NCBI GenBank assembly: GCA_041389545.1
Contig: JAWKRQ010000039.1
Span: 1 to 64,000 of the forward strand
Source of the DNA: Myxococcota bacterium
GTDB taxonomy: Bacteria; Myxococcota_A; UBA796; GCA-2862545
DNA length: 64,000 nt
Direction of reading: 5' to 3'
In this document: positions 7,688-41,133 of the stretch, piece by piece
Layout of the letters: each line of letters begins with the position of its first letter
How positions within the stretch are numbered: the stretch's first letter is position 1
The notes under the pieces: generated by a model
Seen by the model: only the letters and a program-made list of their open reading frames with translations
Databases searched by the model: none
Told to the model about the DNA's origin: nothing
Translations under genes and position numbers: made by a program

Positions 7688-9135
7688 TCGCGCTCGCCCT
7701 GCTCGGCTGCGCGCGCGAGGCGCCGCCCGATCCGGTGTGGACCGCACCCGTGGTCCGCGCCGCGGCCGCCGCGCCCGCCTGGCTGCAGGGGCCGCCCGCG
7801 CTGCGGGCCGACGGCGCCGGCAGCGCGCGCGACCGGTTCCTGCTGTGCACGGGGGCGCCGGGCGCGCGCGAGGCGCTGCTCGCGGCCCTCGACGACCCGG
7901 ACCGGGCCGAGGACCTCGAGCTCGGCGGGCTGTGGAGCGAGGGCGTGTGCGACGCGCCCGGGTGGCGGGACTGGGTGCACCAGCAGCTGGCCGACGCCGA
8001 CGAGCTCGATCCGCGCTGGGTCCTGTGGCACGTGCTGCCCACCGACCCCGCCGAGGACGCCTTCGTGGCGGAGCGCGCGCCGGAGTGGAAGCTGCTGCAG
8101 TGGGTCTACGACCGCAAGGGGCCCTACACGCCACGGCTGCTGGGGATCGTGGCGCGCCAGATGCGGCGCGAGCGACACCTACTGGGCGCGGTACGGGCTG
8201 GCCGCGCTGGCCGAGATCGACGGCGCCGAGGCCGAGCAGGCGTTGCTCGAGCTCGCCGAGCACGCGCCGCCGTCGCTGCGCGACGAGGTGGCGCTGAGCC
8301 TGTGGGGACGCCCGTCGACGGAGGCGCGGCGGCTGCTGGGCGCCGCGTGCCGGCGGGTGCCGGACCCGCGCTGCGACCTGGTCCGGCCCGACCCGATCGC
8401 GGCCCTGCCCCAGACGCCGGCCGCGGGCGCCGACGGCGTGGCCATCGCCGAGGCGCACCCGGCCTACCGCGGGGCGGTGGTCGAGGCGCTCGACGGCTGC
8501 GTGCGGGGCGGGTCGCGCCGATGCGCCGAGGCCCTGGCGGCGCTCGACCTGGCGGCGGCGCAGACGGCGCTGCAGGCCGCGCCCGACGTGGCGCCGGAGG
8601 TGGCTGCGGCGCTGGCGGCGGGCCCCGAGGCGGTCGGCGAAGCCCTGCGCGAGGCCGGCTTCACCCCCGGCGAGGGCCCCACGGCCATGGCGCAGCTGCG
8701 CGCGGGAGGCCACGCGGTGGCCGTGGCGAACCGCGGGACCCGCGCACGGCCTACGCCCTGGCGGCGGCCGCGGGCGCGGACGCGCTCGGGTTCGCCGACG
8801 TGGAGCCGAGCTACACGCAGAGCGTGCCCGGCCGCCAGCCGCTGGTGGCGCGGCTCGCCTGGGGCCCGGGCTGGCGGCTGCGGGCCCTGGCCGAGCCCGT
8901 CGACCGCGGCGACCCCATGCTGCTGGCGACGGTGGGGCTGCTGAACGCGGCGCTGGCGGCCGAGGCGCGGCCCGAGCGGGTGGCGGTGACGGCGGGCTGG
9001 GACGAGGCGGTGGTGGGGCCCGCGGACGGGCTCCGCGCGCTGGCCGCCGACGGCTGGGTGGCGTTCGCGCCGCAGCCGGCCCCGCTCCCCGAGCCCGAGC
9101 CCGCGGCGGACGGCTACGACATCCTGGAGCCCTGA
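7684..9135 (+). CDS. HEAT/ARM-repeat lipoprotein with two apparent frameshifts (near 8160 and near 8740)
   Basis: VIALALLGCAREAPP has a lipobox. Then WVLWHVLPTDPAEDAFVAERAPEWKLLQW, YWARYGLAALAEIDGAEAEQALLELAEHAPPSLRDEVALSLWG (HEAT-like) and the C-terminal ...GWVAFAPQPAPLPEPEPAADGYDILEP follow. The plausible sequence jumps between frames 1, 2 and 1. Confidence 0.5.
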   Translation: MIALALLGCAREAPPDPVWTAPVVRAAAAAPAWLQGPPALRADGAGSARDRFLLCTGAPGAREALLAALDDPDRAEDLELGGLWSEGVCDAPGWRDWVHQQLADADELDPRWVLWHVLPTDPAEDAFVAERAPEWKLLQWVYDRKGPYTPRLLGIVARQMRRERHLLGAVRAGRAGRDRRRRGRAGVARARRARAAVAARRGGAEPVGTPVDGGAAAAGRRVPAGAGPALRPGPARPDRGPAPDAGRGRRRRGHRRGAPGLPRGGGRGARRLRAGRVAPMRRGPGGARPGGGADGAAGRARRGAGGGCGAGGGPRGGRRSPARGRLHPRRGPHGHGAAARGRPRGGRGEPRDPRTAYALAAAAGADALGFADVEPSYTQSVPGRQPLVARLAWGPGWRLRALAEPVDRGDPMLLATVGLLNAALAAEARPERVAVTAGWDEAVVGPADGLRALAADGWVAFAPQPAPLPEPEPAADGYDILEP

Positions 9136-12100
9136 CCCTCGCGGACGCCGTCCGCGAGGTCGTTGACGGCCCCCGCCACCGAGCGCTTCAGCGCGGCGAC
9201 GAAGGCCTGGTGCTCGGCCTCGCTCAGGTGCCCCCGCGCGACGGTGGCCATGTGCACCGTCAGCCGCTCGATGACCGAGAGCGCGGCGGCGAGCGTGGTG
9301 GCGTCGCCGCGGGGCTGGACCCGCGGGCCGTCGCCGAGCGCGGCGCGGACCTGGGCGAGGAGCAGGCGCCGTGCGTGGCCGAGCTCGTCGGGGACCTCGG
9401 GGTCGTGGCCGTTGGGCGCCGCCGGGCGGGCGTCGAGCGCGGCGCGGATGGCGCGCAGCTCGCCGAGGACGGCCTGCAGCCCCGGATCGGGCGCCGGCGG
9501 CGCGGGCGCCCACGCGGCGAGCGCGTCCACCAGCGGCCCGGTGCGGTCCTGCGCCAGCGCCGCGGCGATGTCGGTGAGCGCGCCCGTCACCCGGCTCGCG
9601 GGGTCGCCGTCGCCCTGCATCCGGCGCCGCCGGAACGCGGCGCGGATCTCGGCCCAGCGCGCCGCCTCGGCCTCCGTGAGCGTCCCGCGCAGCTCGCCGA
9701 GCCGCAGCAGGTTGGCCTCCGCGCCCGTGGTGAGCGTCTGCGCCTCGCTGCGGTAGTGGTCGGTGACGAGCGCGTCCACCTCGTCGGCCTCCATGACGGG
9801 CACGACCTTCTCGCACAGCTTGTTCAGGTTCCGGTAGCTGCCCTGCAGCTGGAAGCGCGGCTCCGTCCGATAGGCGTCCTCCATCGCCGCGGAGCGGATG
9901 TACTCGGCGTTCACCTGCAGCAGGACGCGCTGGCAGCGCATCAGGTGCCGCAGGACGGCCAGCATCTCGCCGCGGACGGCCGCCCCGTCGTCGACCGACA
10001 GCCCGTCGGCAGCGACGTCCTCCCCGCGCGCCATGCGCACCAGCGCGAGCAGGTCGGCGCTCGGCCGGGCGGCGAGCGGCGCCAGCACGGGGTTGCTCGT
10101 GACGGCGTTCTCGAGGAACGAGAGCGCGAACTGCTCCTCGCGGCCCGACAGCACGTCGCCGAGGTTGTAGGTGTCGGCGCGGTTCGCGAGCATGTCGGGG
10201 AGGGTGAAGCGCGCGCCCGCCTCGGTGTACGGGTTGCCCGCCATCACGACGCAGAACTTCTTCCCGCGCAGGTCGTAGGTCCGGGTCCGCCCCTGCCAGA
10301 CCCCCTCGATGCGCCGCTGGCCGTCGCACAGGCTGATGAACTTCTGCAGCAGCTCGGGGTGGCAGTGCTGGATGTCGTCCAGGTAGAGCATGACGTTGTT
10401 GCCCATCTCGAGGGCGAACCCGATGCGCTCGATCTCCTGGCGCGCCGTCCGGTCGGGTGCCTCGGCCGGGTCGAGGCTCGTCACGCCGTGGCCGATGGCC
10501 GGGCCGTTCACCTTGTCGAAGGTGAGGCCGAGCCGGTGCGCGACGTACTCCATCAGCGTGGTCTTGCCGTAGCCGGGGGGCGAGACGAGCAGCAGCAGGC
10601 CCATCAGGTCGGTGCGCCGGGCGGCGCCGGCCGCGCCGAGCTGCTTGGCGAGGTTGTCGCCGACGAGCGGCAGGTACACCTGGTCCACGAGCTGGTTGCG
10701 CACGAACGAGCTCATCACCTTGGGGCGAGCTCCGACAGCCGCAGCGTCTCGCGCCAGGCGGCGAGGACCTCGGCGCGGGCGTCGCGGAAGGCGCGGAACC
10801 GGGACGGTGACGGCGACGAAGCGCTCGAGCGTGGCCAGGAAGGCGTCGAGGCGCACGTGCAGCGCGCCCTCGCGGACGGTGAGGTGCTGGCCGAGCAGCC
10901 CGGTCACCTCGAGGTGGCCGCCGCCGGGCCGCACGTCCGCGGCGAGGTGGCCGACGTGGCGGACGCTGCGCAGGGCGGCGGCCTCCAGGCCGAGCTCGGG
11001 GTCGGCGTCGGTGCGGCGGGCGTAGGCGTCGAGCCAGGCCCGCAGCAGGGCGAAGCGCTCGGCCTCGCCGAGCGGGCGCAGCGCGTCGTCGAGGGCGGCG
11101 CGGCCGCCGTGCTCGTCGAGCCAGGCGTCGAGGCCGCGGTCGAGGGCGTCGGCGGCGTCGGTGAAGGCGAAGCGTGCGGCGTCTCGCCCGAGCACCTCCA
11201 CCAGCACGCGGCCGGCGGCGGGCGCGGCGGGGACGAGGTCCACGGCGAAGCCCTCGGCGAAGGCGCCCGCGCGGTCGGCGAGGCTCGGCGCACAGCCGCT
11301 CCAGCGCGGCGGACGGGCCGAGCGCCGTGCGCAGCTGGACGAGCGAGCGGCTGCGCGCGCGCCACTAGCTCGCGGTCGCCGGCGGGGGCGTGGGCCCAGC
11401 ACAGCGCCGCCAGGGCGCGCGCGGCGGGGCCGAAGGCGAGGAGATCGGCCGTGCGCCGGGCGTCGGCCAGGGCGACGAGGATGCGCGCAGCGTCGTGGTC
11501 GTGGACGCCGCGGTCGTAGCCCTCGTCGTAGCGCTGGGCGGCGGCGGCGCGGATGTGGACCAGCGCCTCGTCTTCGCCGCTCACGTCGGGGTGGTCGGCG
11601 TACACGGCGTAGGCCAGGTAGGAGGCCCGGTACACGGCCTCGTCCTCGGAGACGAGCGCCTGGTGCCAGTGCGGGCGGCCCGCCTCCAGCCGGGGGTCGT
11701 CGATCGGCTGGAGGAAGTCCGTGCCGGTGAGGTGAAGCGCGAGCGCGTCTCCGTGCGGGAGCAGCGTGAGGTCCAGCGGGCGAGTGTTTACCGTGAAACG
11801 GTGCTTGCCGAAGCGGACAGTCCCATCCGCATCGAACAGCTCCAGGGCGTCGCGGAGGCCGCGGAGCGCGTCCTGGCGGGCCGTCTTGAGGCGGGCCTCG
11901 ATCTCGTCGCTGCGGACGGTCTCGCCGAGCGTGGCCAGGTCGCGCGCCAGCTTGCGGACCTTGTCCACCATCGGGTCGGCCGCGAACCAGGCTGCGAGCT
12001 CGGCCTCGTCGCGGAAGGCGCGGGCGCGGCGGGCCACGCCCTCGAGGATGCGGTCGGCCGCCTGCGCCAGGGCGCCGGCGCGGCGCTGGCGCTCCTCGAG

Positions 12101-14380
12101 CAGCGTCTGCTTGCGCGCCTCGAACGCCTCGACCAGCTCCTCGCGCTGCTGGGCGAGCTGGGGGAGGAAGTCGTCCACGTCGCCGAAGCGGCCCTCCAGC
12201 TCCTCGAGCTGCAGCAGCACGCGCGACAGCTGCTCGTCGCAGGCCTCCGGCGTCGGCGACGACGCCAGCGCCGCCGCGATCCGCTGGGTCAGCAGCTTGA
12301 GCTGCGCGCCGAACTCGGCGCGGCCCTCGCTCGCCCGCAGCGTGCGCACGCGGCCGTCGAGCACGGCGCGCCCGCGGTTCGCGTGGGCCGCCACCTCGCC
12401 GATGCGCTCGAGGATCGCCGTCTTCGCGGTGGCGTCCTCCACGTCGAGCCCGGCGACGACCTCGCCCAGCGCCGCCACCCCGTCGCTCGCGGCCACCAGG
12501 CGCTCGCCGAGCTCGGCCAGCGCGTGGGCGCGGTCGGCGCCCTCGCCTGCGGCCACCAGCGAGTCGATCTCGTCGCGCAGGGGCTGCAGCGCCTCCTCGC
12601 GGGCCAGGAACCGCACCGCCTCGCGCCCCACGCGCTCGGTGCGCTCGGCGACCTCGGCCTCCAGCGCGTCCAGGCGCTCCACGTCGACGTAGCGCACGTC
12701 CCGCAGCGTGATCAGCCGCCCGCGGTGCACGCGCAGGCGGTTCATCGCGCCGACGAAGGCGTCGACCTCGCGGAAGTACTCGGGCTGCACGTCCGACAGG
12801 ACCCTGGCGTGGGCGGCCTCCGCGGCCGCGAGCTGCTCGGCCGCGGCGCGCTCCAGCGCCACCACCTTGTCGAACTCGTCGACCACGCGCTCGGCCGTGC
12901 GCCGCGCCTCGTCGGCCAGGCCGCGCAGGTCGCCCACCTCGGCGCCGGCCCAGGCGTGGGCGTCGCCGAAGCGCTGGCAGGCCGCGACGAGGGCCTCGTA
13001 GCCGGGGCGGGTGGGGCGCTGGCTGCGGATCTGGCGGACCAGCGTGAAGGCGTCCGACACGCAGCGCACGAGGCCCTGGTTGCCGATGCGCATCAGCAGC
13101 GAGCCGTCGTTCGGCAGCGCGCGGTGGTGCTCGGCCGAGACGAACGGCGTGGACCAGATCTGCGCCGGGTGCAGCCGCGTGGGCTCGGGGTCGGCGCGGA
13201 AGGCGACCAGCGTGCCGTCGTCGAGCAGGGACCAGCCGTGGGCCAGGATCGGGGTGTCGAGCTCCTGGCGCACCAGGTTGTACGGGTACAGGGCGTACAG
13301 GCCGTCGTCGGGGCGGAAGAAGACGTACAGCACGTCCTCGCCGTTGGGCGACGCGACCGTGCGGACCAGCTGGAGCCCCTCCGTCTCGGTGTCGAAGGCC
13401 TTGAGCTCGCCCGTGGCGAGGTACAGGCCGCCCGGGAAGACCAGGCCGTGGTCGTCGGGCAGCGAGGCGCAGCTGTGGCCCAGGGCGTCGACCCGCACGA
13501 CCTGGCGGACGGCCGGGTTGTAGACGAGGTAGCGGAAGGCGGCCTCGCCGTAGGGCTTGACCTTGAGGAGCACGAGGTTGCCGCGCTTCGCGTACTGGAT
13601 GTCGGCGTCGTCGAGCGACTGGCGCGGGTCGTCGACCGGCTCGCGCCAGATGCCGCGGCCGTCCTCGGTGTTGTCCTCGATCTTGACGGTGAGGTCGCCG
13701 CCCACCGTCTCCACGAACACGGTGTCGAGGACGTTGACGTGGGGGTGCCGCCCCACGACGTGGTCGTCGCGGGTGGTGCGGGTCCAGGCGAAGTCGTGGG
13801 TCGGGGGGAAGGTGTGGTCGCGCTCGCCGCGGGCGTCGAGGTAGGTGATCCGGCCGCCCGGGTCGACGGCCCAGCGGAAGACGCGCACGTCGCGGGCGCT
13901 GTGGCCCACGCGCACCACGGCGAGCAGCTTGCCGTCCACCACGCGCAGCTGGACGAGGCGCGGGTCCTTGTAGACCTCGCACAGCTCGTCGAAGTCGCGC
14001 AGGAAGGCGCGGTCCTGGAGGAACGCGAGGCGCCGCTCGTCGGTGACGGCGCCGAAGGCGAAGCCGGCCTCGGTGCGGGTGAAGCCGTGCAGCGACAGCA
14101 TGTCGGCGACGGACAGCTTGCGCTTGAGGCCGAGGAAGACGTTGTAGCCGAGCAGCAGGTCGCCGCCGAGCTGCACGATGTCGGCGGCGACGCTGTTGTT
14201 GTCGGTGCCGATGCGCTCGTGGCCGAGCAGGGTGAGGCCGGTGGTGCCGAACCGCTCGGCGCGGCGGGCGTTCAGGGCCTCGGCGGCCTGCTGGAGGCGG
14301 TCGCCGGTGGCCTGGAGGCGCCGCTGGATGACCTCGTAGTTGCCGCCCTCGACGGTGCCTGCGGCGAGCGCGTCGGACAT
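9114..14380 (-). CDS. Giant multidomain protein of about 1755 aa: an N-terminal beta-rich domain of about 480 aa, a coiled-coil region of about 500 aa, and a C-terminal MoxR/ChlI-class AAA+ ATPase with an alpha-helical tail. One apparent frameshift near 11300-11400; it could alternatively be two genes.
   Basis: ATG at 14380 with GGAG upstream. Walker A is VSPPGYGKTT, Walker B is VMLYLDDIQHCHPELLQ, sensor/arginine region is CVVMAGNPYTEAG...LPDMLANRADTY (compare MoxR ATQNPIE..LP.A.LDRF). Long heptad-like E/R/A/L stretches lie upstream. The 3' end overlaps the convergent HEAT lipoprotein gene by about 20 bp. Confidence 0.6.
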
Positions 14381-14439
14381 GGACTGGGACTCCGGAGTGA
14401 GTGGGGGTGGGAGGGGGTGGGAGTGAGGGAGTGGGCCCG

Positions 14440-14650
14440 GGGCGGATCTGCCTCCGGGCCAGGATGAATTCAGGTCGGGCCCGATCCGCTTCCGGTGCCT
14501 CGACATCCGGCGGACCAGGGCGACTCTCGCCCGGCGTCCCCCGATGGGCCCGGCACCGATCTGCCTCCGCAACAGGATGAATTCAGGTCGGGCCGGATCT
14601 GCTTCCGGTCGGGCCGGATCTGCTTCCGGCGCAGATCCGGCCGCACCCGG
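14440..14650. repeat. Intergenic direct repeats: two copies of about 50 bp with a CAGGATGAATTCAGGTCGGGCC core roughly 100 bp apart, plus tandem CGGGCCGGATCTGCTTCCGGT x2
   Basis: GATCTGCCTCCG..CAGGATGAATTCAGGTCGGGCC(C/G)GATC(C/T)GCTTCCGG occurs at about 14446 and about 14548. They lie between the flotillin stop and the giant gene start. GAATTC-containing A/T-richer cores stand out in the 72% GC background. Confidence 0.6.
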
Positions 14651-16800
14651 CTACTTCGCCTCGGGCGTCCCGAGGTCGGCCGCCTCGCCGACCCCGTTGC
14701 TGCTCACCGCGTCGCGCACGTCGCGCAGCGCGTCGCCGAGCGTGCGGCTCCCCGACAGGTAGGGCGCCAGCGCCGCCTGCGCGACGCTCGAAGTTCGCCA
14801 GGAACCCGTCCACCATGTTCCCCACCGACGCCGCCTGGACGAACTTGTCGAGGAACTGCCCGTCGCCGCCGACGATCTTGATGTCGGCCTTGCCGAAGGC
14901 CTCGGCCAGCACCTTCGCCTGGGCCTCACCGAGCACCCGCTGCGCCTCGAAGCGTGGCCACGCGCACCCGCTCGTCCCGCTCGAGCTGCAGGCGGAACTC
15001 CTCGTGCTCCCGCGCCGCGCCCTGCAGCTTCTGCATGGCCTCGAGCTTCGCCGCGAGCCCCGTGGCCTCGGCCTTGCGCTGCTCCAGCATCGCCGCCGCC
15101 TCGGCCTCGCCGCGCGCCCGGACGGCCGCCGCCTCCGCGGTGCGCCCCTCCGCCTCGGCCACCAGCTTCAGCCGCGTGGCCTCGGCCTCGGCCGCGCCGT
15201 AGCGCGCCACGGCCTCGGCCTCGGCCACCCGCCCGGTCGCCTCGGCCTCCATCCGCCGGCGCACGACCTGCGCCTCGACCTCGCCCGGCTGGTCGAGCAC
15301 CCGCACCCGGGCGAGCCCCTGCTCCTCCTCACCCCGAGCCACGGCCTGCATCCGCTCGAGCTCGACCCGCGCCATCGCGAGCCCCTCCTTCTCGAGGGCC
15401 AGCGCGTTGGCCTCCTTGACCCGCACCTGCGCGAGCCCGGTGGCCGCCTGCTCGGCCTGCACGCCCTCGGCGACCCGGATCTTCGCCTTGGCCGTCTTCT
15501 CCGCGGCGTCGAGCTCGGCCGTCGCCGCGATCAGGCGCTGCTTGGCCGTGTGCTCCGCCACGCGCTCCTGCGCCTCGGCCTCCTTGATGGCCTGCACCAT
15601 CGCCTGCTCGGCCGCGGCCTGCGCGTCGATGACGGTCACGTCCTTGCGCCGGTTCGCGTCGGCGGTGGCGCGCAGGTCCTTGATGCGCTCCTCCTCCTCG
15701 GCGACGTGCTTGTCGACGGCGATGCGCCCCCGCACCACGTCGGCGATCTCCTTGCGCTTGACCTCGAGCTCCATCTCCTTGTCGATCTCCTGCCGCTCGA
15801 CCTCTCGCTGGCGCGCGATCACCTCGAGCTCGCGGTCGCGGTCGACCTGCTCCTGCTTGACGGCCAGCACCCGCGCCTTGTCCTGCTCCGCCGTCTGCAC
15901 CTGGCGCGCCTTGGCGACGGCCTGGATCTCGATCTCCTCCTCGGCCTTGAGCCGCGCGAGCTCGGAGCGCTGCGTCTCCTCGGCCTGCACCTTCGCCGTC
16001 TCGGCCGCCTCGCGCGCCTTCACCGTCGCGATCTCGCGCTGCTGGCGTGCCTCGGCGTCGGCGCGGCGCCGCTCGAGCTCGAGGATGGCCTCGTCGGCCT
16101 CGAGGTTCTGCCGGGTCAGCGCCTTGCGCTCCTGCTGCCGCAGGTCGTTCGTCAGCTGGTTCTGCTGCGCCGTGATCTCGGTGATCTTCCGGATGCCGCG
16201 CGCGTCGAGGATGTTGTCCTTGTCGAGCTCCTCGATCGAGGTCTGCTCGAGGTAGTCGATGGCCACGTCCTCGAGCACGTAGCCGTTGAGGTCGCGCCCG
16301 ATGACCTCGATGATCCGGTCCTTGAACTCCTCGCGGCGGACGTACAGATCCTCGAAGTCGAGCTGCTTGCCGACCGTCTTCAGGGCCTCCGAGAACTTGG
16401 CGGCGAACAGCTCCTCGAGCGTCTCCTGCTTGCTCGCCCGCTCGCAGCCGATGGCCTGCGCCACCTTGAGCACGTCCTCCTTGGTCTTGTTGACGCGGAC
16501 GAAGAAGGCGACCTTGATGTCGGCCCGGATGTTGTCCTGGCAGATGAGGCCGTCCTTGCCGGCCCGCGCGATGACCATCGACTTCACGGAGATGTCCATC
16601 ACCTCCGCCTTGTTGATGACGGGGTAGACCACCTGCCCGGTGAAGGTCACCACGGGCTCGCCGCGCATGGTGTTGACGATGAGGGCGCGCCCCTGGTCGA
16701 CCTTGCGGTAGAAGCGCACGATCACGCTGGCGGCGCCGACGAGCGCCAGGAACAGGAACGCCGCTGCCGCGAACAGCAGCAGGAACGTCAGGAACGACAC
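14651..16800 (-). CDS. Flotillin-like SPFH/band-7 protein; the last roughly 90 codons are in a different frame (apparent frameshift near 14930)
   Basis: GTG start with GGAGG 7 nt upstream. The N-terminal TM segment is VSFLTFLLLFAAAAFLFLALV. The SPFH core is followed by a long E/A/R/Q coiled coil typical of flotillins. The C-terminal ...GVGEAADLGTPEAK lies in a second frame. Confidence 0.7.
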
Positions 16801-16802
16801 AG

Positions 16803-17545
16803 TCAACCTCCGTGCGGGTGGGTGGTGGGGAGCGCCTCGACGACGAACGCCTCGCGCCGCGGATCGAACGCGACCACGAGGGCTTCGGCGCCGCGCCGCA
16901 GCCCGGTGTCGGGCTGGTCGCAGCGGACCTGGACGAGCAGCTCGTCGCCGTCGACGGTGAGCCGCGCCTGGCCGAACCGGGCGTCGACCCGGCCGGTGGT
17001 GATCTCGGCGGCCTCGCCGAGCAGGGCCTCGCGGCTGCGCGCGTGGGCGACGCGGAACAGGGGCTCGAGCGGGCGGGTGGCGACCCGCGCGCCGAGCGCG
17101 CCGAGCAGCACGGCCGCTGCCCAGGTGGCGGGCGGCGGCGAGCGGGGGACGGACAGCCGCGCCGCCAGCGCGCCGCCCACGGCCACGGCGAAGGCGCAGG
17201 CCGCGAACACCGTGATCCAGACGGTGAGCGGGACGCGGCCGAGCCGGAGCGCGGACGCGAGGGCGGCCAGCAGGCCGAGCCCTCGACGGCCTCGGCGGCC
17301 GCTTCGCCCGCGGCGTCGCCGGCGCCGTCGAGGGCGCCGTCGAGGGTCCCGTCGAGGGCGCCGTCCACGGCTGCGTCGACGGCGCCGTCGACCGCGCCGT
17401 CCAGGGCCCCGTCGGCGCCGTCGCCGAGGTCGATGCCCGTGAGCAGGGTGAACGCCCAGTACACGACGACCAGCCCCACCAGCAGGGCGAACGGGACGAC
17501 GGCCGGGTGGGTGGAGATCGCGACGACGTCGAGCAGCGCCTGCAT
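16803..17545 (-). CDS. NfeD-like membrane protein (flotillin partner) with one apparent frameshift near 17270
   Basis: N-terminal TM segments (MQALLDVVAISTHPAVVPFALLVGLVVVYWAF) are followed by a (GALD)n-like repeat. Then in another frame come TM segments and a C-terminal OB-fold-like EAAEITTGRVDARFGQARLTVDGDELLVQVRCDQP. It lies immediately upstream of the flotillin gene. Confidence 0.55.
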
Positions 17546-17811
17546 GGGGACCGTTTCCGTGGTTTGACCATGGGTACGGGGGACCGGGTCGGATCATTTC
17601 GACCCCCCGGTCGCATTTCCGACCCCTGCGCCCGTCTCTCCTTCCCCCTTGCTTTTTGCCCGTGCCCCGCCCCGGACGGGCTCGCGCCGAATTGTGCTGA
17701 CGGGCGAAAGGGGACTATTGACGGGCAGGCGCTGAGCAGATCTGGCGACGATGCCCGCTGGCTGCGCCTGACCGACAGGGTCCCCCGCCCGGCGGCACCG
17801 TAGCCATTGAC

Positions 17812-17870
17812 GCGATCGCGCCCGACGCGTTTCCGTCAATTGACGGAAAGGCGCCCGACGCGTTTCCGTC
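17812..17870. promoter_or_regulatory. Candidate operator: a 20-bp perfect palindrome TTTCCGTCAATTGACGGAAA (17829..17848) embedded in two tandem copies of GCGCCCGACGCGTTTCCGTCAATTG
   Basis: The perfect dyad symmetry centres on AATT. A half-site is repeated 34 bp downstream. The site is AT-richer than its surroundings and sits in a long non-coding region. Confidence 0.4.
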
Positions 17871-18985
17871 AATTGCGCGAGCAAAGCCGATGGGGCTTCC
17901 CCGATTCCTGCTCCGTTCACGAGGTTGCTCCTCCGTGACCAGGAATCGGGAAGCCATTTCGGCGCGCACGCGCCCGTAGTAATTGCATCCGTCGCCGGCG
18001 GACGCCGCGGGAAGCAAGCCGGGTCGAGTGAGACACCCGAGGGAGGTATGCCCCCCTCGATCGCACAGTTGGAGCCGTTTCTGGGGGGTGGGGGAGGTGG
18101 GAGCGCTCGAGACTGACGGTTGGATCGTGGCGGCGCGCGCGGGGTGTGCGATCGAGGGGGGGCTTCCCTCTCCGAGGTGTGCGATCCGAGCTGGCTTACC
18201 TGGGGGTAGCCGGGGTGAATCGTGAACCGGCGACGATGGGCGTGCAGTGCAGATCCGGCAGCGACGGCTGGCTACGCCCGACCGACAGGGCCCGCCCGCG
18301 CGGGCTCGCGCGAATTGCGCGAGCGGCGGCCGCGAATGCATGGCGGCGAGCCTCGGCAACGGCACCGCGGTCCGCCGGTTCCACCGCACGCGCGCCCGCG
18401 CAGGTCAGGCGCTGTTCGCCGTTGCGACGCTGTGCCGGACGGCGTTCACCGTTGGGAATCGGGCGGGTGGCGCGCCCGGGCCAGTCGCCGGCCTGCTCGG
18501 CCAGGCGCCGCAGGGCGTCGAGTGCCTGGCGGTGGTCGCCGATCTGCTCGAGCGCCTCGACGTAGGCCTTGCGCGCCCCGGACGCGTTGCCCGCCTTCTC
18601 CTGGATCTCGCGCAGGCGCCGAGCGGACCCGCCGACGATGCCCCCCCTGGCGACGCCCGCCCGCCAGGCCTCGCGGCGGCGCCGGTGCGGACCTCGTTAC
18701 GCCCAGCTTCGCACGCGCGAACGCCGGTCCCATCATGGCGCGACGGGAGCGCCACGCGACCGTGAGCTCGTGGGGGTGGAAGCTCGGCAAGCGGCCACAG
18801 CGCGCTCCCGTCGGCTCCGCTCGCGCAGAGGACGGAAACCCGTCGGGCGACAATTACTACGAGCGCGTGCGCGCCGAAATGGCTTCCCGATTCCTGGTCA
18901 CGCAGGAACGAACTCGTGAACGGAGCAGGAATCGGGGAAGCCCCATCGGCTTTGCTCGCGCAATGCGTCGTCGGGCGCAAGGGCA
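17846..18985. mobile_element. Candidate non-autonomous (MITE-like) element of about 1.1 kb bounded by near-identical inverted repeats of about 135 bp (17846..17985 and 18850..18985), with no intact internal ORF
   Basis: The right repeat is the reverse complement of the left with only a few mismatches and one short indel. Each arm itself contains a hairpin (CCCGATTCCTG...CAGGAATCGGG). The interior has only R/A-rich spurious ORFs and a possible TPR remnant. Additional partial repeats occur at 17730..17800 versus 18262..18330. Confidence 0.35.
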
Positions 18986-19042
18986 AGGGCAAGGGCAAGG
19001 GCAAGGGCAAGGGCAAGGGCAAGGGCAAGGGCAAGGGCAAGG
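18975..19042. repeat. Hexanucleotide microsatellite (GGCAAG), about 11 tandem copies, in the promoter/5' UTR of the downstream lipoprotein gene
   Basis: Perfect tandem GCAAGG units abut the right inverted repeat and end about 60 bp upstream of the ATG at 19102. In one frame they would encode (GK)n, but the true start is downstream at the signal peptide. Confidence 0.8.
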
Positions 19043-19101
19043 GCACGGGACCGTCACATCTCGATGCCGGCGCACCCGCCCCGCCGGACTACCAGGGACC
19101 C

Positions 19102-20118
19102 ATGAACCGCTCACTCCGCTCGCTCCTGCCCCTCGCCGCCACCGCCGCCGCCTCCCTCGCCTGCGCGGGGCTCGGCGCGCGCATCGCCGCCGACAACCTG
19201 GCCTGGTCCCTCGAGAGCATCGACCTGCTCGAGCCCGGCCCGGGCCGCGATCAGCTCACCGCCTGGGCCGAGGAGGGCTTCGTCCGCGCCCGCCGGGGCG
19301 ACCTCGACTCCAGCGTCGCGCGCGCGTTCCGGGACGCCGTCGAGGCCGCCGCCGAGGACCGCGTCCTCGCCCCCGCCGAGCTCGACGAGATCGCCGCCAT
19401 CGCCGCGCCCTTCGCCACCCCCGGCCCGGACTCGCCCGAGCGGCAGGCCATGCTCGACGACATGCGCGCCCGCAAGCGGACGACCCGCCCCCCGCCCCCG
19501 CCCCGCTACCACGTCGAGGACTGGGACCTGGCCGCGCTGCGCGACCACGCCAGCGCGCTGGCCCCCGGCGGGACGCTCGCCTGCGAGGAAGCGGAGGTCC
19601 CCGACGTGGGGCCGACCCGGTCCTGCGCCCTGCCGGACGGCCTGGGCACCGTGATCTGGCAGCAGCTGCCCGACCCGTCCACCGCCGAGGCCGTCCAGGG
19701 CGCGACGCAGATGAACATGGCCGTGTACCGCGAGCACAGCACGCTGCTCTCCGTCCAGTTCAACGGCGAGCGCCCCGCGATCCCCGCGCTGACCCGCTGG
19801 CTGGCCGCGGGACCGCCCCGCGCCGACGTCGACTGGGTCCGCCCCCTCGCCGCACAGGACGGGCTCGCCCTCGGCGAGTGCCACGAGATGGACCTGATGG
19901 GCACGGCCACCACCTCGTGCCCCCTGCTGCGCGACGACCAGCCCACCGGGATGGTGATCCTCGCCGGCCACCCCGGCGCCGCGGACGAGGCGCCGCACCC
20001 GGCCGGCGGCGGCGCCGTCACGGCCGTGGCCGCCGGCGTCGAGGTGACGCTCACGCTCACCGACCCGACCCTGAACGACGCGCTCCTGCACGCCGTCCTG
20101 ACCGGTCAGCCGCGCTGA
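19102..20118 (+). CDS. Lipoprotein, hypothetical
   Basis: MNRSLRSLLPLAATAAASLACAGLG gives a signal peptide with a LAC lipobox. The rest is 338 aa with normal composition. Confidence 0.6.
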   Translation: MNRSLRSLLPLAATAAASLACAGLGARIAADNLAWSLESIDLLEPGPGRDQLTAWAEEGFVRARRGDLDSSVARAFRDAVEAAAEDRVLAPAELDEIAAIAAPFATPGPDSPERQAMLDDMRARKRTTRPPPPPRYHVEDWDLAALRDHASALAPGGTLACEEAEVPDVGPTRSCALPDGLGTVIWQQLPDPSTAEAVQGATQMNMAVYREHSTLLSVQFNGERPAIPALTRWLAAGPPRADVDWVRPLAAQDGLALGECHEMDLMGTATTSCPLLRDDQPTGMVILAGHPGAADEAPHPAGGGAVTAVAAGVEVTLTLTDPTLNDALLHAVLTGQPR

Positions 20119-20246: not shown

Positions 20247-21101
20247 ATGGCCCGTGTCGAGCAGGTGTTGGCCGAGTACCCCGATTCCACCCTCACCTAC
20301 AAGCTGCTGGGCGCGCTGTACGGCACCGTCCCCGGCGCCGGCGCGTTCTCCCCGATGCACACGCTCGAGGACACGCTGCGGACGCTGAACCCCGCCGCCA
20401 CCGCCGCCGACGTGGCCCGCGCCCGCGACATCGCCGATCGCACCGACGAGATCGGCGACATCCTGTGGATGGGCAACCTGATGGACTCGGGCGACAAGGG
20501 CTACGCCGTGCTCACGGGCCTGGCCGCCGCCTGGAAGCTGTTCCAGGGCAAGGGCAGCGACGCCTTCGAGAACGACCCGCAGCAGCGCAACGACGCCGTG
20601 CTCAAGGCCCTCGGCATCGCCTACATGGTCTACAAGGCCTACCCGGGCTCGCTGTCGGAGCGCGCCGCCGCGTTCCAGGCCTCCCCCGCCGGCAAGGCGC
20701 TGGCCGTGTACTACGGCGCGGTGGAGCTGGCCCTGCCCTTCGCCGACAACGCTGCCACCATGGGCGCCTCGGGCTTCTCCTCGTTCCTCGAGGGCCAGTC
20801 CGCCGCCCAGGCCGGCCGCCTCGCGCAGATGGCCCAGGGCCACGACGTGGGCAAGGCCTCCGAGATGCTCACCCAGGTCACCTCCCAGCTCGGCTCGGTC
20901 GCGGCGACCGCGTCGGGGTACATCCAGCCCATGACCCAGGCCATCGGACCGTACCTGCCGAGCGCGGCCTCCGTGGGCCTCGCCGCCGACCGGGCCGCGG
21001 GCGCCATGGCGGCCGCCGCCGACGTGCTGCCCGTCTACCGGCTGCTGTCGGCCCGGCTCGCCGCCGAGTCCGCCGCCCGCCGCGCGCTCGCGCCGAAGTA
21101 G
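20247..21101 (+). CDS. Hypothetical protein
   Basis: ATG is preceded by AGAGGAGG. 284 aa (MARVEQVLAEYPDSTLTYKLLGALYG...) with normal composition. Confidence 0.55.
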   Translation: MARVEQVLAEYPDSTLTYKLLGALYGTVPGAGAFSPMHTLEDTLRTLNPAATAADVARARDIADRTDEIGDILWMGNLMDSGDKGYAVLTGLAAAWKLFQGKGSDAFENDPQQRNDAVLKALGIAYMVYKAYPGSLSERAAAFQASPAGKALAVYYGAVELALPFADNAATMGASGFSSFLEGQSAAQAGRLAQMAQGHDVGKASEMLTQVTSQLGSVAATASGYIQPMTQAIGPYLPSAASVGLAADRAAGAMAAAADVLPVYRLLSARLAAESAARRALAPK

Positions 21102-21104
21102 CCG

Positions 21105-21860
21105 GTGGCGCTCACCTCGGTCGCCGCGTCGCTGCGGGCCTTCGGGCCCACCACCCTGGTGGTGCGCGCGGTCGACGCCGTGCTCGGCACGCTGGGCGAG
21201 CCGCCCGTCCCCCACTGGGCCACCGTGGGAGACGCCGCGGCAGCGCTCGACGCGCCGCTGGCGCACACCGAGGCGTTCGCCGAGGACGACCGGTCCCGCG
21301 AGATCCTGCACGTCGGGGCCGCCGTCGACGGCGCCGACCGCGCCGTCGCCCGGCGCATCCGCGCGGAGGACGCCCTCGGCCCCCAGGCGGAGGACGCCGT
21401 GCTGAAGCTCCTGATGCTCGGCTGGCTCCAGGGCGCGACCCACGGCGCGCTCCTCGACCTGCACGCCGGCCGCACCGCCCTGCTGTGCTGGGCGGCCGTC
21501 GACGTGGTGCTGCCCCTGGGCGGCGCCGACGTCCCGTGGATGCTCGAGGAGCACCGCGAGCAGCAGACGATCCGGCTGGTCTCGCTGTGCGGCGAGGCCG
21601 GCATGGACCGCGTCCGCGGCGGCGTCGACGCCGTGCTGCCCCGGGCCGCCGAGGCCGTCGCCCGCGCCGCGCCCCACGCCGACGCCCTGGCGCTCGCCCT
21701 CGCGCCGTTCGTCCCGGGCCTGCTCGCCAGCGGCGACGACGCCGCCGCCAACGTCGCGCTGCAGGGCGACCGGCTGCCGCTGTACAAGTGGCTCGCCACC
21801 CGGATCGCCGCGGAGTACGCCGCCTCGCGCGCCCGCACCGGGATCACGGGGCCCACGTGA
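21105..21860 (+). CDS. Hypothetical protein
   Basis: GTG start lies 3 nt after the upstream stop. 251 aa. The stop overlaps the next gene's start (GTGA). Confidence 0.5.
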   Translation: MALTSVAASLRAFGPTTLVVRAVDAVLGTLGEPPVPHWATVGDAAAALDAPLAHTEAFAEDDRSREILHVGAAVDGADRAVARRIRAEDALGPQAEDAVLKLLMLGWLQGATHGALLDLHAGRTALLCWAAVDVVLPLGGADVPWMLEEHREQQTIRLVSLCGEAGMDRVRGGVDAVLPRAAEAVARAAPHADALALALAPFVPGLLASGDDAAANVALQGDRLPLYKWLATRIAAEYAASRARTGITGPT

Positions 21861-37221: not shown

Positions 37222-38930
37222 CCTCCGTGGCCGCGCTGTGGCGCCGTCGCGCCCGCAGCACCCCGCAGCGGACGGCGTTCCGCGCCCGCCACGGCGAGCG
37301 CTGGGCCTCCATGTCGTGGGCGGAGGCCGACGCCCGCGTGCGGCACGTCGCCGCCGGCCTCCTCGCGCGCGGCATCCCCCGCGGCGCGCGGGTGGCGATC
37401 CTCTGCGGCACGCGCGTGGAGTGGATCCTCGCCGACTTCGGCGTCCTGTGCGCGGGCGCGGCCACCTCCACCATCTACCCCTCGTCGACGGCCCAGACGG
37501 CCTACATCCTGCGCGACGCCGACTGCTGGGCCGTCGTCGTGGAGGACGCCGCGCAGCTCGCGAAGGTCCGCGAGGGCGGCGTGGTCCCCGAGCACGTCTT
37601 CGCGGTGGAGGAGGGCACCGACGCGCCGTCGCTGCGCGACCTCGAGGCCGAAGGCGCCGCCTGGCTCGACGCCCACCCCGACGCCGTCGACGAGCGCATC
37701 GACGCCCTCGGCCCCGACGACCTCGCGACCCTCATCTACACGTCGGGGACCACCGGCCCGCCGAAGGGCGTGGTCCTGACCCACGACAACTGGTGCTTCC
37801 AGGCGGAGTCGGTCCACGAGACCGTCGGCCACGACGTCCGCGACGACGACCTCCAGTACCTGTTCCTCCCGCTGGCCCACAGCTTCGGCAAGATCTGCGA
37901 GCTCGTCGCGGTGGAGCTCGGCGTGGCCACCGCCGTCGACGGCGACCTCGAGGGCATCCTGGCGGGCCTGCAGCACGAGCGCCCGACCCTGATGCCCGCC
38001 GTGCCGCGGGTCTTCGAGAAGATCCACCACCGCATCCACGCCGAGGCCGCGCGCGGCGGGCCCCGTCGGCTCGCGGTGCTGCGGTGGGCGGTGCAGGTCG
38101 GCGCCGAGCGGGTCCGGCGCGAGCAGGCGGGCGAGCGGGTCGGCCTGCGGCTGCGCGGCCAGACCGCCCTGGCCGATCGCCTCGTCTACCGCCGGCTGCG
38201 CGCCGCGCTCGGCGGCCGGATCCGCGCCTTCGTCTCGGGCGGCGCGCCGCTGACGCCCGACATCGCCGGCTTCTTCCAGGCCGCCGGCATGACCGTGGTC
38301 GAGGGCTACGGCCTGACCGAGACCTCCGCCGGGGCCGTCGCCAACCGGCAGGACGACGTGCGCTTCGGCACCGTCGGCCGCACCCCTTCCCCAGGGTCGA
38401 GTCCGGGTAGCCGACGGCGGCGAGGTGCTGCTGCGCGGCCGCAACGTGATGCGCGACTGGAACCGGCCCCGACGCCACCGCCGACGCCCTCGACGCCGAC
38501 GGCTGGCTGCACACCAGCGACCTCGGCGCGCTCGACCCCGACGGGCGGCTCGTCATCACCGGGCGCCTCAAGGACCTCATCGTCACCGCCGGCGGCAAGA
38601 ACGTCGCCCCGCAGGATCGCGGAGCAGCAGCTGAAGGCGCTGTCCGCTCGTGGCCGAGGTGGTGACGGTGGGCGACCGGCGTCCGTACTGCGTCGCGCTG
38701 GTGTGGCTCGACCCGGAGGTCGCGCAGACCTGGCTCGCCGACCGGGCCAGCCCGCCGACGTCGACTTCGCCGCGCTCTCCCGGACCGCCGCGCTGCACGA
38801 CGCCGTGTGGGCGGCGGTCGAGGCGGTCAACGCCACCCTGCCCTCGTACGCGACGATCAAGCGGATCGCGCTGGTCGGCGACGCGCCGATGACCGAGGCC
38901 TCGGGGCTGCTCACGCCGTCGCGAAGGTGA
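37218..38930 (+). CDS. Long-chain fatty-acid--CoA ligase (AMP-binding family, FadD-like); at least four apparent frameshifts in the last third
   Basis: [20 protein letters not shown] (AMP-binding motif I), later GYGLTETS, then ...[39 protein letters not shown] and ...[22 protein letters not shown] found in shifting frames. Confidence 0.55.
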
Positions 38931-38985
38931 AGCGCGGGGCGGTGGCCGAGCGCTACGCCGACCCGCATCGAGGCGCTCTACGCGG

Positions 38986-41133
38986 TCACTTGACCGTGCA
39001 GCTGAAGAAGCCGGCCACGCAGTTGACGGTGACGGTGCGGCCCTTGCGCACGGTGACGCTGGCCCGCTGCTTGAGCTCGCCCTGGCCGGGGAACGTGGCG
39101 CGCAGCTCGTAGGTGCCCTCGGGGACCCAGCCGGCGCTGTAGGTCTTGCCGTTGCCCACGAGGTGGATCGAGGTCGCGTCTCGGTGAGCTGGACCTTGCC
39201 CTTCGACAGGCCGCGCGGCTTCGGCTTCGCCGGGGTGGGCACCGGCGCCGCGTCGGCGTCGCCGGCCGGCGCGTCGGGCTCGGGCACGTCGGCATCCGGC
39301 ACGTCGGCGTCCGGCAGGTCGGCGTCCGGCGTCGGCGTCCGGCACCTGGTCAGGTCGGGCTGCGGCTGCGCCTCGGTGGGACGGGCGCAGGGCCTCGTCA
39401 GCGTGGCGTCTCGCCGGGATCAGCGCCGCCAGACACCAGCGCGTAGAGCAGGGAGCCGCCGAGCAGCACCAGCAGGGTGCCGCCGATGGCGAGGACGGCC
39501 GCCATGGCCGGCGCGGCCAGCCACGGCACGGTGCGCCCCATGGCGGCGCCTGGGCGGCACGGTGGTGGGGCTCGTGGGCGGCGCGGGGAGGTGCAGCGAC
39601 GGCGTGGAGTCGAGCATCGGCGAGCGGCCCGGCCAGCGGCTTCGCCGCGCCCGCCGTGGTCGCTGCGGGGGACGGCGAGGAGGACGGCGCCGACTGCACG
39701 AGGATCGAGACCTGCAGGCGACCGCGGCCGGCGGCACGGGCGAGGCCGAGGAGGCGGGCTTCATGGGCTCGTCGGGCTCGTCGTCGTCCTCCTCGCGCAC
39801 CCACTCCGTGGCCGGGGCGGGGCGGCGCGTCGAGGAGGCCTCGGCCTCGGCCTCCCGGCTCGGGCGCGGCGGCCGCCAGCAGCGGCGTCGACACGGCGCG
39901 CACCTTCTCGGTCTCGGCCTCCTCCTCGTCGAGGTCGTCGAGCACCTGGCGGACGATGGGCTCGAAAGCGCGTGTGATCTTCGCCGTCGGCCAGCGCCTC
40001 GCCCAGCGGCTCCGGCTCGGGCTCGGCCTCGGGCTCGGGCTCCGCCTCGGGCACCGGCTCCGGCGCCCGCCGCTTCGGCCTCCGCCGCCGCTCCCGGCGC
40101 AGGCTCCGCTGCGTCCACCGGCGCCGGCTCGACCTCCGGCGCCGCCTCCGCTTCCTCCGGCGCAGGCGCCTCCGCCTCCGGCTCCGGCTCCTCCACCGCC
40201 GAGCCCGACGGCCGCGCGCCCCGGGGATCTCCATCCCCGTCGCCTGGCTCTCCGACAGGCTCTGCCGATCCGCTGGAGCACCGCCCGGTTCCACGCCTGC
40301 GAGCGCTCCATCCGCGTGTGCCCGCACCACGTCGTACAGCGCGTCGACCGAGGCCAGGCGCTGCTCGAGGTCGACATCGCCCCCTCGATGGCGTCGGCCA
40401 TGCGGTCGGGCAGCTGCGGGACGAGCTCGGTGATCCGCGGGTAGTCGGCGTTGCGGACCCGGTCGAGCAGGTCGAACAGGTCCTCCTCGTCGTAGGGGCG
40501 CCGCCCCGCGCACAGCTCGTAGAGCACGACGCCGAGCGAGTACACGTCGGCCCGGGCGTCGACCGAGCGCGTGTTCCGGAACTGCTCGGGCGCCATGTAC
40601 GACGGCGTGCCCATCACGACGCCGGTGCGCGTCTGCACGGCCGCCGCGTTGCCGTCGAGGCTCTTCGCCAGCCCGAAGTCGGTGATCTTCGGCAGGTACC
40701 CGTCGTCGGTCTGCGCCAGCAGCACGTTCGCCGGCTTGATGTCGCGGTGGATCAGCCCCGCGGCGTGCGCCGCGCGCACCCCCTTGAGCATGCCCCGCGC
40801 GAGCTCGTCGATCTGCTCGGGGGTGGGCTGGTGCACGGCGAGCAGCGCGGCCATCGACGGCCCGTCGACGTACTCCATCACCAGCGCCGGCAGCCCGCCG
40901 ACCTCGATCATGTCGAACACGGTGACGATGTTCGGGTGCCGCAGCTCGGCCTGCAGCGCGCCCTCGCTCCGGATGCGATCGGCGAGCTCCGGGTGGGTGA
41001 CGTGCATCACCTTCAGGGCGTAGGCGACGTTCAGCATCCGGTGCCGGATGCGGTAGACCGACGCCATCCCACCCCGCCCGACCAGGCCTTCGACCACGAA
41101 CCTGTCGACGGCGGTGCCCGCAGCGAGTTCCAT
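38986..41133 (-). CDS. Eukaryotic-like Ser/Thr protein kinase with a C-terminal PEGA-like beta domain; the middle is Gly/Ala/Arg-rich and apparently frameshifted
   Basis: Kinase subdomains: ALKVMH, HRDIKPANVLL, DFGLAKS, GTPSYMAPE. C-terminal ...GKTYSAGWVPEGTYELRATFPGQGELKQRASVTVRKGRTVTVNC. Confidence 0.6.
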   Translation of the reverse strand: MELAAGTAVDRFVVEGLVGRGGMASVYRIRHRMLNVAYALKVMHVTHPELADRIRSEGALQAELRHPNIVTVFDMIEVGGLPALVMEYVDGPSMAALLAVHQPTPEQIDELARGMLKGVRAAHAAGLIHRDIKPANVLLAQTDDGYLPKITDFGLAKSLDGNAAAVQTRTGVVMGTPSYMAPEQFRNTRSVDARADVYSLGVVLYELCAGRRPYDEEDLFDLLDRVRNADYPRITELVPQLPDRMADAIEGAMSTSSSAWPRSTRCTTWCGHTRMERSQAWNRAVLQRIGRACRRARRRGWRSPGRAAVGLGGGGAGAGGGGACAGGSGGGAGGRAGAGGRSGACAGSGGGGRSGGRRSRCPRRSPSPRPSPSRSRWARRWPTAKITRAFEPIVRQVLDDLDEEEAETEKVRAVSTPLLAAAAPEPGGRGRGLLDAPPRPGHGVGARGGRRRARRAHEARLLGLARAAGRGRLQVSILVQSAPSSSPSPAATTAGAAKPLAGPLADARLHAVAAPPRAAHEPHHRAAQAPPWGAPCRGWPRRPWRPSSPSAAPCWCCSAAPCSTRWCLAALIPARRHADEALRPSHRGAAAARPDQVPDADAGRRPAGRRRAGCRRARARRAGRRRRRGAGAHPGEAEAARPVEGQGPAHRDATSIHLVGNGKTYSAGWVPEGTYELRATFPGQGELKQRASVTVRKGRTVTVNCVAGFFSCTVK

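Follow-up and report, generated by a model that had tools for sequence, protein, structure and literature searches.

A long inverted repeat with self-folding arms in a non-coding spacer of an uncultured member of the Myxococcota

The DNA analysed, called the window below, is the stretch of 64,000 nt at positions 1 to 64,000 of contig JAWKRQ010000039.1, from a metagenome-assembled genome (MAG) of an uncultured member of the Myxococcota. Its G+C content is 75.1%, at which six-frame open reading frames (ORFs) are uninformative; genes were placed by third-position GC content and confirmed with Pfam. The locus in question is a gap without coding signal by third-position GC, 1,556 nt in length (17546-19101), which contains a long inverted repeat. 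On one side lies an NfeD-like gene (minus strand, 16806-17545, start at 17545), followed in the same operon by a YqiK-type flotillin gene (minus strand, ~14953-16800) and a DUF3686/AAA ATPase gene (minus strand, 9114-14395). On the other side lies a lipoprotein gene (plus strand, 19102-20118), so that the genes flanking the gap diverge in transcription. No other spacer of the window that lacks coding signal is as long, if 38385-40263, where the coding signal is fragmentary, is left aside. An initial annotation, made from the sequence alone, had described 17846-18985 as one discrete element, either a transposable element of the miniature inverted-repeat class (MITE) or a deleted insertion sequence (IS), or else as a large structured non-coding locus.

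The inverted repeat and the hairpin in each arm

The left arm (H1, plus strand, 17872-17985) and the right arm (H2, minus strand, 18851-18964) are gapless reverse complements of each other over 114 nt, with 109 of the 114 positions matching (95.6%, five substitutions) and 865 nt between them (17986-18850). BLAST of arm against arm, searched in the 64-kb window, gave E = 1.8e-42. When all inverted repeats with halves at most 5 kb apart were considered across the window, the runner-up was 70 nt at 71%. The 114-nt inverted repeat is real and is the sole repeat of such quality in the window. An unfiltered covariance model built from both arms and run over all 64 kb recovered only H1 (144 bits), H2 (141.7 bits) and their opposite strands, which still scored 34-36 bits, the unit being palindromic.

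Beyond this core the arms match again only over GCGCCCGACG (17851-17860 against 18969-18978), past an indel (CGTTTCCGTCA against ACGC). The outer extension of the left arm (plus strand, 17851-17871, GCGCCCGACGCGTTTCCGTCA) is therefore matched on the right side over its first 10 nt only, and that of the right arm (minus strand, 18965-18978, reverse complement GCGCCCGACGACGC) is shortened by the indel relative to the left. The inverted repeat was thus correctly recognised in the initial annotation, with limits at 17846 and 18985 that are ~5-7 nt too wide. The accompanying description, 95% identity with one short indel, holds for the core and fails for the outward extension, where GCGCCCGACG alone is shared.

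Each arm also folds by itself. The predicted structure is a 37-bp imperfect hairpin of ~100 nt with an energy of -57.7 to -60.2 kcal/mol, compared to ~-38 kcal/mol for shuffled sequences; z was -5.5 to -6.4 and none of 200 shuffles was equally stable. For H1 the values were about -59 kcal/mol and z -5.8, and for H2 -57.7 kcal/mol and z -5.7. At the core of the hairpin is a perfect 11-bp stem, CCCGATTCCTG/CAGGAATCGGG. It was this core that had been reported earlier as an 11-bp-stem hairpin in each arm; the existence of a separate hairpin per arm was right and its size was understated. The five differences between H1 and H2 fall at module columns 53, 55, 57 and 62, in the apical loop, and at column 103, in the 3' tail.

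Because the flanking genes diverge, each of them has the same hairpin upstream in the same relative orientation. A transcript crossing an arm would be expected, from RNA folding, to carry a very stable stem-loop, and the complete 1.26-kb fold pairs the two arms with each other. These features could point to a structured RNA, as a duplicated small-RNA gene, as a cis-regulatory leader for each flanking gene, or as arms pairing into a 114-bp double-stranded RNA. The stability of the fold on either strand, the avoidance of the main stem by the arm differences and the shared orientation relative to the neighbouring genes would all suit such an RNA. However, a search of 17000-19800 against Rfam 15 brought up nothing at E <= 1, nor did the whole window yield anything at the gathering score, and neither a sigma-70-type promoter nor an intrinsic terminator was matched in 17400-19200 (other promoter classes lay outside the scan). 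The arm hairpin was absent from the 122-280 nt upstream of NfeD in relatives, two near-identical copies with no homologues give no basis for covariation, and the stems pair as well on one strand as on the other, which is what a DNA palindrome would give. A structured RNA is accordingly regarded as unlikely. Rfam lent no support to the large structured non-coding locus offered as an alternative in the initial annotation, which may still apply. No tRNA or tmRNA genes were found in the window. Retrons, integron attC sites, CRISPR, tRNA and tmRNA were set aside, there being no reverse transcriptase or integrase in the scanned ORFs, no tRNA or tmRNA gene and no Rfam match.

Further repeats and a gene remnant in the spacer

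Next to the left arm, a 33-nt tandem repeat of 2.3 copies (plus strand, 17806-17880) duplicates the outer leader of the arm, the first 24 nt of which recur exactly at 17819-17842. Unit 2 of this repeat is itself a palindrome (17837-17853 / 17859-17875, TTGACGGAAA-N13-TTTCCGTCAA), which could be an operator. The 33-nt repeats also hold two tandem minus-strand matches to GGAAAC-N16-CGTC (17809-17867), the only ones in the window, facing NfeD. We take this pattern to resemble the AAC / CGT pattern of promoters for extracytoplasmic function (ECF) sigma factors. In shuffled sequences the mean number of matches was 0.27, and two or more were seen in 4 of 100. The promoter is a lead and not a finding.

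The outer 43 nt of the module occur a third time on the minus strand, as a copy diverged to 84% (18807-18849; score 29, where shuffles reached at most 13). This copy corresponds to 17852-17894 (CGCCCGACGCGTTTCCGTCAATTGCGCGAGCAAAGCCGATGGG) and adjoins the right arm at its inner end, head to tail. Following it is an unrelated hairpin, GACGGGAGCGC ... GCGCTCCCGTC (minus strand, 18739-18815, -61.4 kcal/mol), whose z of -2.3 is barely above shuffles. The same applies to a long interior palindrome at 18016-18197 (z -2.4), which has perfect 17-nt arms at 18051-18067 / 18145-18161. Two further likenesses, between the tail of H1 and the tail of the 18739-18815 hairpin and between the leader and a supposed fourth copy ahead of the 18016-18197 palindrome, were dropped, as their local alignment scores were no better than those of shuffles.

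Sequence from outside the left arm recurs between the arms in direct orientation. The outer region (plus strand, 17722-17792) has one copy at 18244-18303 and a weaker one at 18609-18668. Between 17731-17792 and 18244-18303 the identity is 78%, and the 37-nt core (17757-17792 against 18267-18303) scored 25 against a shuffle maximum of 18. The partial repeats noted initially (17730..17800 versus 18262..18330) are hence real though weak. The interior copy of the outside motif is followed by a small perfect palindrome, CTCGCGCGAATTGCGCGAG (together plus strand, 18244-18330), within which the 12-nt arm junction AATTGCGCGAGC recurs at 18312. With the outside/inside repeats, the tandem repeat and the extra partial copies, the signs of repeated local rearrangement that had been suggested are present. 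Because 18267-18303, inside the arms, copies 17757-17792, outside them, a single simple insertion is disfavoured.

The 865-nt segment between the arms is non-coding save for a pseudogene fragment. Third-position GC is flat over the spacer apart from 18460-18690 on the minus strand, a coding-type remnant of 77 codons with a third-position GC of 0.97, interrupted by stops and weakly TPR-like (TPR_14, E = 0.0012, below the curated cut-off). It looks like the relic of a former gene. Both the absence of a credible ORF and a possible TPR-like remnant on the minus strand had been stated in the initial annotation, and both were borne out. No paralogue of the remnant turned up elsewhere in the window, nor a counterpart beside NfeD in relatives. 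Homology to the genes upstream of the relatives' NfeD, including a kinase-TPR protein in locus L108, was tested and none was found.

Between the right arm and the start codon of the lipoprotein gene (19102) is a microsatellite, (GCAAGG) x 12.2 (plus strand, 18977-19049), which with 98% matches is the cleanest tandem array of the window and lies 53 nt upstream of that codon. Read as (GGGCAA)n, it presumably matches the G3-N3 pattern of G-quadruplex-forming sequence. A change in its copy number would shift the spacing of the lipoprotein upstream region. A like array, (CCGTGC) x 8.5, is found in the related locus L086 at 8944-8994, upstream of NfeD and with the same strand polarity relative to NfeD.

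At the opposite end of the spacer, the NfeD-proximal region (minus strand, 17546-17700) keeps a weak similarity to relatives, with CCCCCGTA..ATG and GGGGCAsGGGCAA in common. Because it is this part that weakly aligns with them, the control region of the operon probably stops before the repeats start.

Flanking genes and related loci

Many uncultured Myxococcota conserve this operon, in which an NfeD-like protein, a YqiK-type flotillin (~620-760 residues) and a giant DUF3686/DUF7902/AAA ATPase are encoded. The relatives examined were loci L085-L087 and L105-L108, and the counterpart in the window is 9114-17545. Upstream of NfeD, the spacer measures 122, 135, 174, 248 and 280 nt in five relatives, versus 1,556 nt in the window. 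These five are distant, with flotillins 70-73% identical, and make a weak empty-site comparison. The gene upstream of the operon differs in each genome examined. The flotillin of the window is 100% identical to protein R3F59_21970 of a Myxococcota MAG. The closest flotillin outside the source organism is 84% identical in protein comparison, and the contig of that nearest relative (JGI sample 3300080687) stops inside NfeD; as all other flotillins are at most 73% identical, the source organism has no close sequenced relative in the collections compared. A search with the NfeD N-terminus returned weak matches only, at most 59% identical over partial alignments.

Two genes of the operon are split over two frames. 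In the NfeD-like gene the frame changes at ~17120-17330, and the NfeD proteins of relatives match its N-terminal part in frame -1 and its C-terminal part in frame -3; the site of the break is a D/G-rich region of 12-nt repeats (17310-17429). This split is either a consensus indel error or the mark of a pseudogene. The second disrupted frame is that of the DUF3686/AAA ATPase gene, which breaks at ~11216-11339 beside a 25-nt tandem repeat (11304-11357) and which in relatives encodes one protein of about 1,650-1,880 residues. Taken together, the two disruptions reflect either consensus indel errors of the MAG or a decaying neighbourhood, and they fit a decaying or error-prone locus.

Another reading takes the inverted repeat for an assembly artefact, a spurious inverted duplication. 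The source is a MAG, and the frame disruptions in two adjacent operon genes are possible consensus indel errors. Nevertheless, the arms differ by five substitutions and lie mid-contig around 865 nt of unique sequence, and their differing flanks and the diverged partial copies are atypical of fold-back chimeras. An artefact is highly improbable.

The lipoprotein gene encodes a signal peptide, MNRSLRSLLPLAATAAASLAC, with a lipobox, and has a third-position GC of 0.97. As a search of 5.8 billion proteins gave no homologue at E <= 0.001, and no family in Pfam matched, it is considered an orphan on these comparisons. The next two genes past it (20256-21101 and 21102-21857) likewise gave no Pfam match. 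Elsewhere in the window, the region of fragmentary coding signal at 38385-40263 (~1.9 kb, 77% GC) is flanked by genes for an AMP-binding enzyme and a Ser/Thr kinase. It is packed with repeats of low complexity, whose periods are 6, 15, 18 and 21 nt, and may represent a disordered tail of the kinase or more frame-disrupted coding sequence.

Mobility, inversion and local duplication

The proposal of a single mobile element takes 17851-18978 as a ~1.1-kb non-autonomous transposon or internally deleted IS with terminal inverted repeats of ~114-130 nt. What recommends it is the long, high-identity inverted repeat around a gene-less segment, together with the far shorter spacer at the same position in relatives, which at 70-73% flotillin identity count for little as empty sites. 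In addition, the hexamer array lies ~200 nt from NfeD in L086 and ~1.43 kb from it here, which could be read as an insertion of ~1.3 kb. The expected target-site duplications were sought by comparing 12-nt flanks at four boundary definitions, and at most AAG was shared; none of the four had a flanking duplication of the kind the initial annotation had suggested checking for. Pfam detected no transposase, integrase, invertase/recombinase or reverse transcriptase domain in the spacer or in the large ORFs scanned (221-42062). No transposase remnant was found between the arms, where the sole coding-like stretch gave weak TPR matches. The interior shares repeats with the exterior, each arm is self-complementary, which terminal inverted repeats usually are not, and no second copy or autonomous partner was found in the collections searched.

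Prokaryotic MITEs such as QMITE2 of Coxiella and MITEAba12 of Acinetobacter resemble the locus in being intergenic and non-coding and in their inverted-repeat architecture. They have terminal inverted repeats of ~10-50 bp and flanking direct repeats, are often AT-rich and are related to an IS. The 1.1-kb interval does have a terminal inverted repeat (114 nt, 96%), yet one far longer than is typical, 2-10 times the ~10-50 bp of IS inverted repeats (PMC10969869). It also differs in having no direct repeats and no related IS that could be found, and a single arm is likewise without a demonstrable target duplication. With no target-site duplication, no transposase remnant and an interior that shares exterior sequence, the reading of the interval as one discrete mobile element is not supported, and a transposon of this extent is very unlikely.

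Further copies of the arm were searched for in several ways. BLAST with 7-nt words found none in the 64-kb window, and blastn of the region against plasmids and phages gave no match. A leader pattern of 27 specified bases had 0 matches in the Joint Genome Institute (JGI) metagenomes. The stem pattern CCCGATTCCTG-N20-40-CAGGAATCGGG matched 16 JGI metagenome contigs and one viral contig (IMG/VR), none of them homologous past the 11-12-nt stem. The 17-mer GGCTTCCCCGATTCCTG gave at least 84 single chance matches in species-representative genomes of unrelated phyla, which aligned with the spacer over at most 29 nt by BLAST; this pattern is too short for a specific genome scan. Aimed at spurious ORFs that might overlie other copies, phmmer with the open frame through the left arm (the sole fully open one) found one unrelated repeat protein among 1.84 billion protein representatives. 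The multicopy family that had been envisaged thus found no further member in the window, the JGI metagenomes, IMG/VR, plasmids or phages.

The stem search did recover other repeats. A ~220-nt repeat family in JGI metagenomes Ga0316576, Ga0316580 and Ga0315540 has the hairpin CCCGATTCCTGG-N24-CCAGGAATCGGG and shares with the arms a 12-nt stem only. Its members (L089, L090, L092, L093, L095, L096, L097, L100 and L103) are 83-88% identical between contigs at 65-68% GC, and the family is evidently multicopy in some organism of those samples. In L098 (420-780) and L101 (2745-3143), copies of a 27-nt motif (CGCCCTCTGCCCCCGATTCCTGCCACG) are densely clustered in either orientation and form palindromes of 120-130 nt. 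These are REP/BIME-like arrays, unrelated to the window apart from CCCGATTCCTG.

Two arms of 114 nt at 96% identity are long enough for occasional RecA-dependent inversion of the 865-nt segment, whatever their origin. This allows a further reading, an inverton, in which the segment flips and turns a promoter towards the NfeD-flotillin operon or the orphan lipoprotein gene. Like the described invertons (fim, hin and the Bacteroides capsule switches), the locus has an inverted repeat around a short non-coding segment next to a surface-protein gene, here flanked by diverging genes, among them that of a surface lipoprotein. It differs from them in having no recombinase among the scanned ORFs and no recognisable promoter, no sigma-70-type match having been obtained in 17400-19200, and in arms that are several times longer and each self-complementary. 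Invertons have been predicted in Myxococcota, yet more than 75% of read-identified invertons are under 300 bases overall and their repeats are short (PMC11602134). An inverton is improbable.

We prefer, at a probability of about 0.4, to read the arms as a pair of recent copies of the same small palindromic module, placed in opposite orientations in a spacer that is decaying and has undergone local rearrangement. The module would consist of the ~100-nt imperfect hairpin and a short leader, about 115-135 nt in all. The copies, hairpins, partial copies, tandem repeat, outside/inside repeats, pseudogene fragment and short spacers of relatives are direct observations, and for the mechanism we infer that a series of local duplications and inversions enlarged and scrambled the 1.56-kb spacer during the decay of an old gene. 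The copies would have arisen in cis, by hairpin-promoted template switching or slippage in replication or by recombination, and would have needed no transposase; they may well have no dedicated function. Because the arms on this account are two copies of a small module in a scrambled spacer, the 1.1-kb interval would be whatever fell between them and not a transposition unit. Quasi-palindrome and template-switch duplications resemble the locus in combining unrelated palindromes with tandem and inverted copies in ~1.3 kb and in showing no sign of a transposase.

Several observations weigh against local duplication. A near-perfect 37-bp hairpin is unexpected from random local duplication and is a hallmark of a MITE/REPIN/ERIC-type repeat or of a functional stem-loop; template switching, being a mutational mechanism and not a family, leaves the good hairpin of the duplicated unit unexplained. 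All five differences lie outside the main stem, four apical and one in the 3' tail (chance P ~0.03), which hints at constraint on the stem or at stem-templated correction. The GC of the arms is 0.62-0.63, compared to 0.68-0.73 in other spacers. The arm homology begins with ATTGC and finishes with AATTG, a short direct repeat at the two ends of the unit that could be a trace of site-specific insertion. Finally, the uniqueness of the arms holds for 64 kb and for collections that seem to lack the source organism.

Several points favour the main rival to local duplication. On this reading the arm would be a small mobile repeat like a MITE, REPIN or ERIC, itself non-autonomous and moved in trans by a transposase whose gene lies elsewhere in the genome, and two young copies and degenerate older pieces would have been gathered by insertion beside earlier copies. 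The unit is a self-contained, very stable ~100-nt hairpin within 115-135 nt, its two copies are near-identical, its GC is low for the spacers of the window, and ATTG(C) stands at each of its ends. The diverged leader adjoins an arm head to tail, a form of clustering described for REPINs (PMC3116915). The predicted transcripts of MITEs form very stable stem-loops, and copies per genome range down to 1-22 (PMC10969869). On the other hand, there is no other copy in the remaining 62 kb, no homologue in metagenomes, plasmids, phages or protein libraries, and no convincing target-site duplication distinct from the unit, and the ORFs scanned in the window include neither a related IS nor a RAYT gene. 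The multicopy families that were recovered (Ga0316576, L098/L101) share with the arm just the 11-12-nt stem used in the search. A mobile repeat is less probable than local duplication, though the strongest of its rivals.

In kind, the arms do resemble the REPIN/REP/ERIC hairpin repeats, which are extragenic, non-coding units of ~100-130 nt with one long imperfect hairpin, and whose copies can cluster side by side, including head to tail with flanking sequence (PMC3116915). The two inverted halves forming a long hairpin that characterise REPIN-type families are found within a single arm (37 bp, z ~-5.8). The differences lie in number and in partner gene. Such families have tens to hundreds of dispersed copies, whereas two full copies are known here, in one spacer of the 64 kb examined. 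REPINs have a cognate RAYT gene (Y1 transposase), usually flanked by REP sequences, and none was present in the scanned ORFs. The arms have no sequence similarity to any described hairpin-repeat family. They are new in that their sequence matches no described family, and known in kind in that they resemble the small hairpin intergenic repeats and local palindromic rearrangements of many bacteria.

A bolder proposal combines these elements: the arms would represent an undescribed family of hairpin repeats of about 115-135 nt in uncultured, very high-GC Myxococcota, acting as a recombination switch, or else a duplicated structured RNA. This we hold to be a long shot. The same low expectation attaches to the switch itself, in which inversion of the 865 nt between the long self-folding arms would alter transcription towards the flotillin/NfeD operon or the orphan lipoprotein gene.

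The arms are a lineage-specific structure of modest interest, with no transposon or known RNA demonstrated. For now the locus serves mainly as a caution that a conspicuous long inverted repeat in a gap without genes is not necessarily a transposon. In this case the evidence favours local duplication within DNA that is decaying, next to an orphan gene and to two genes whose frames are disrupted. Should the segment invert, it would exemplify a switch whose arms are very long and self-folding and which has no invertase of its own. If the arms belong to a dispersed family, they would be a marker for strain typing and assembly breaks, and a new small hairpin repeat for the Myxococcota, a phylum represented mostly by MAGs and with hardly any description of its repeat content.

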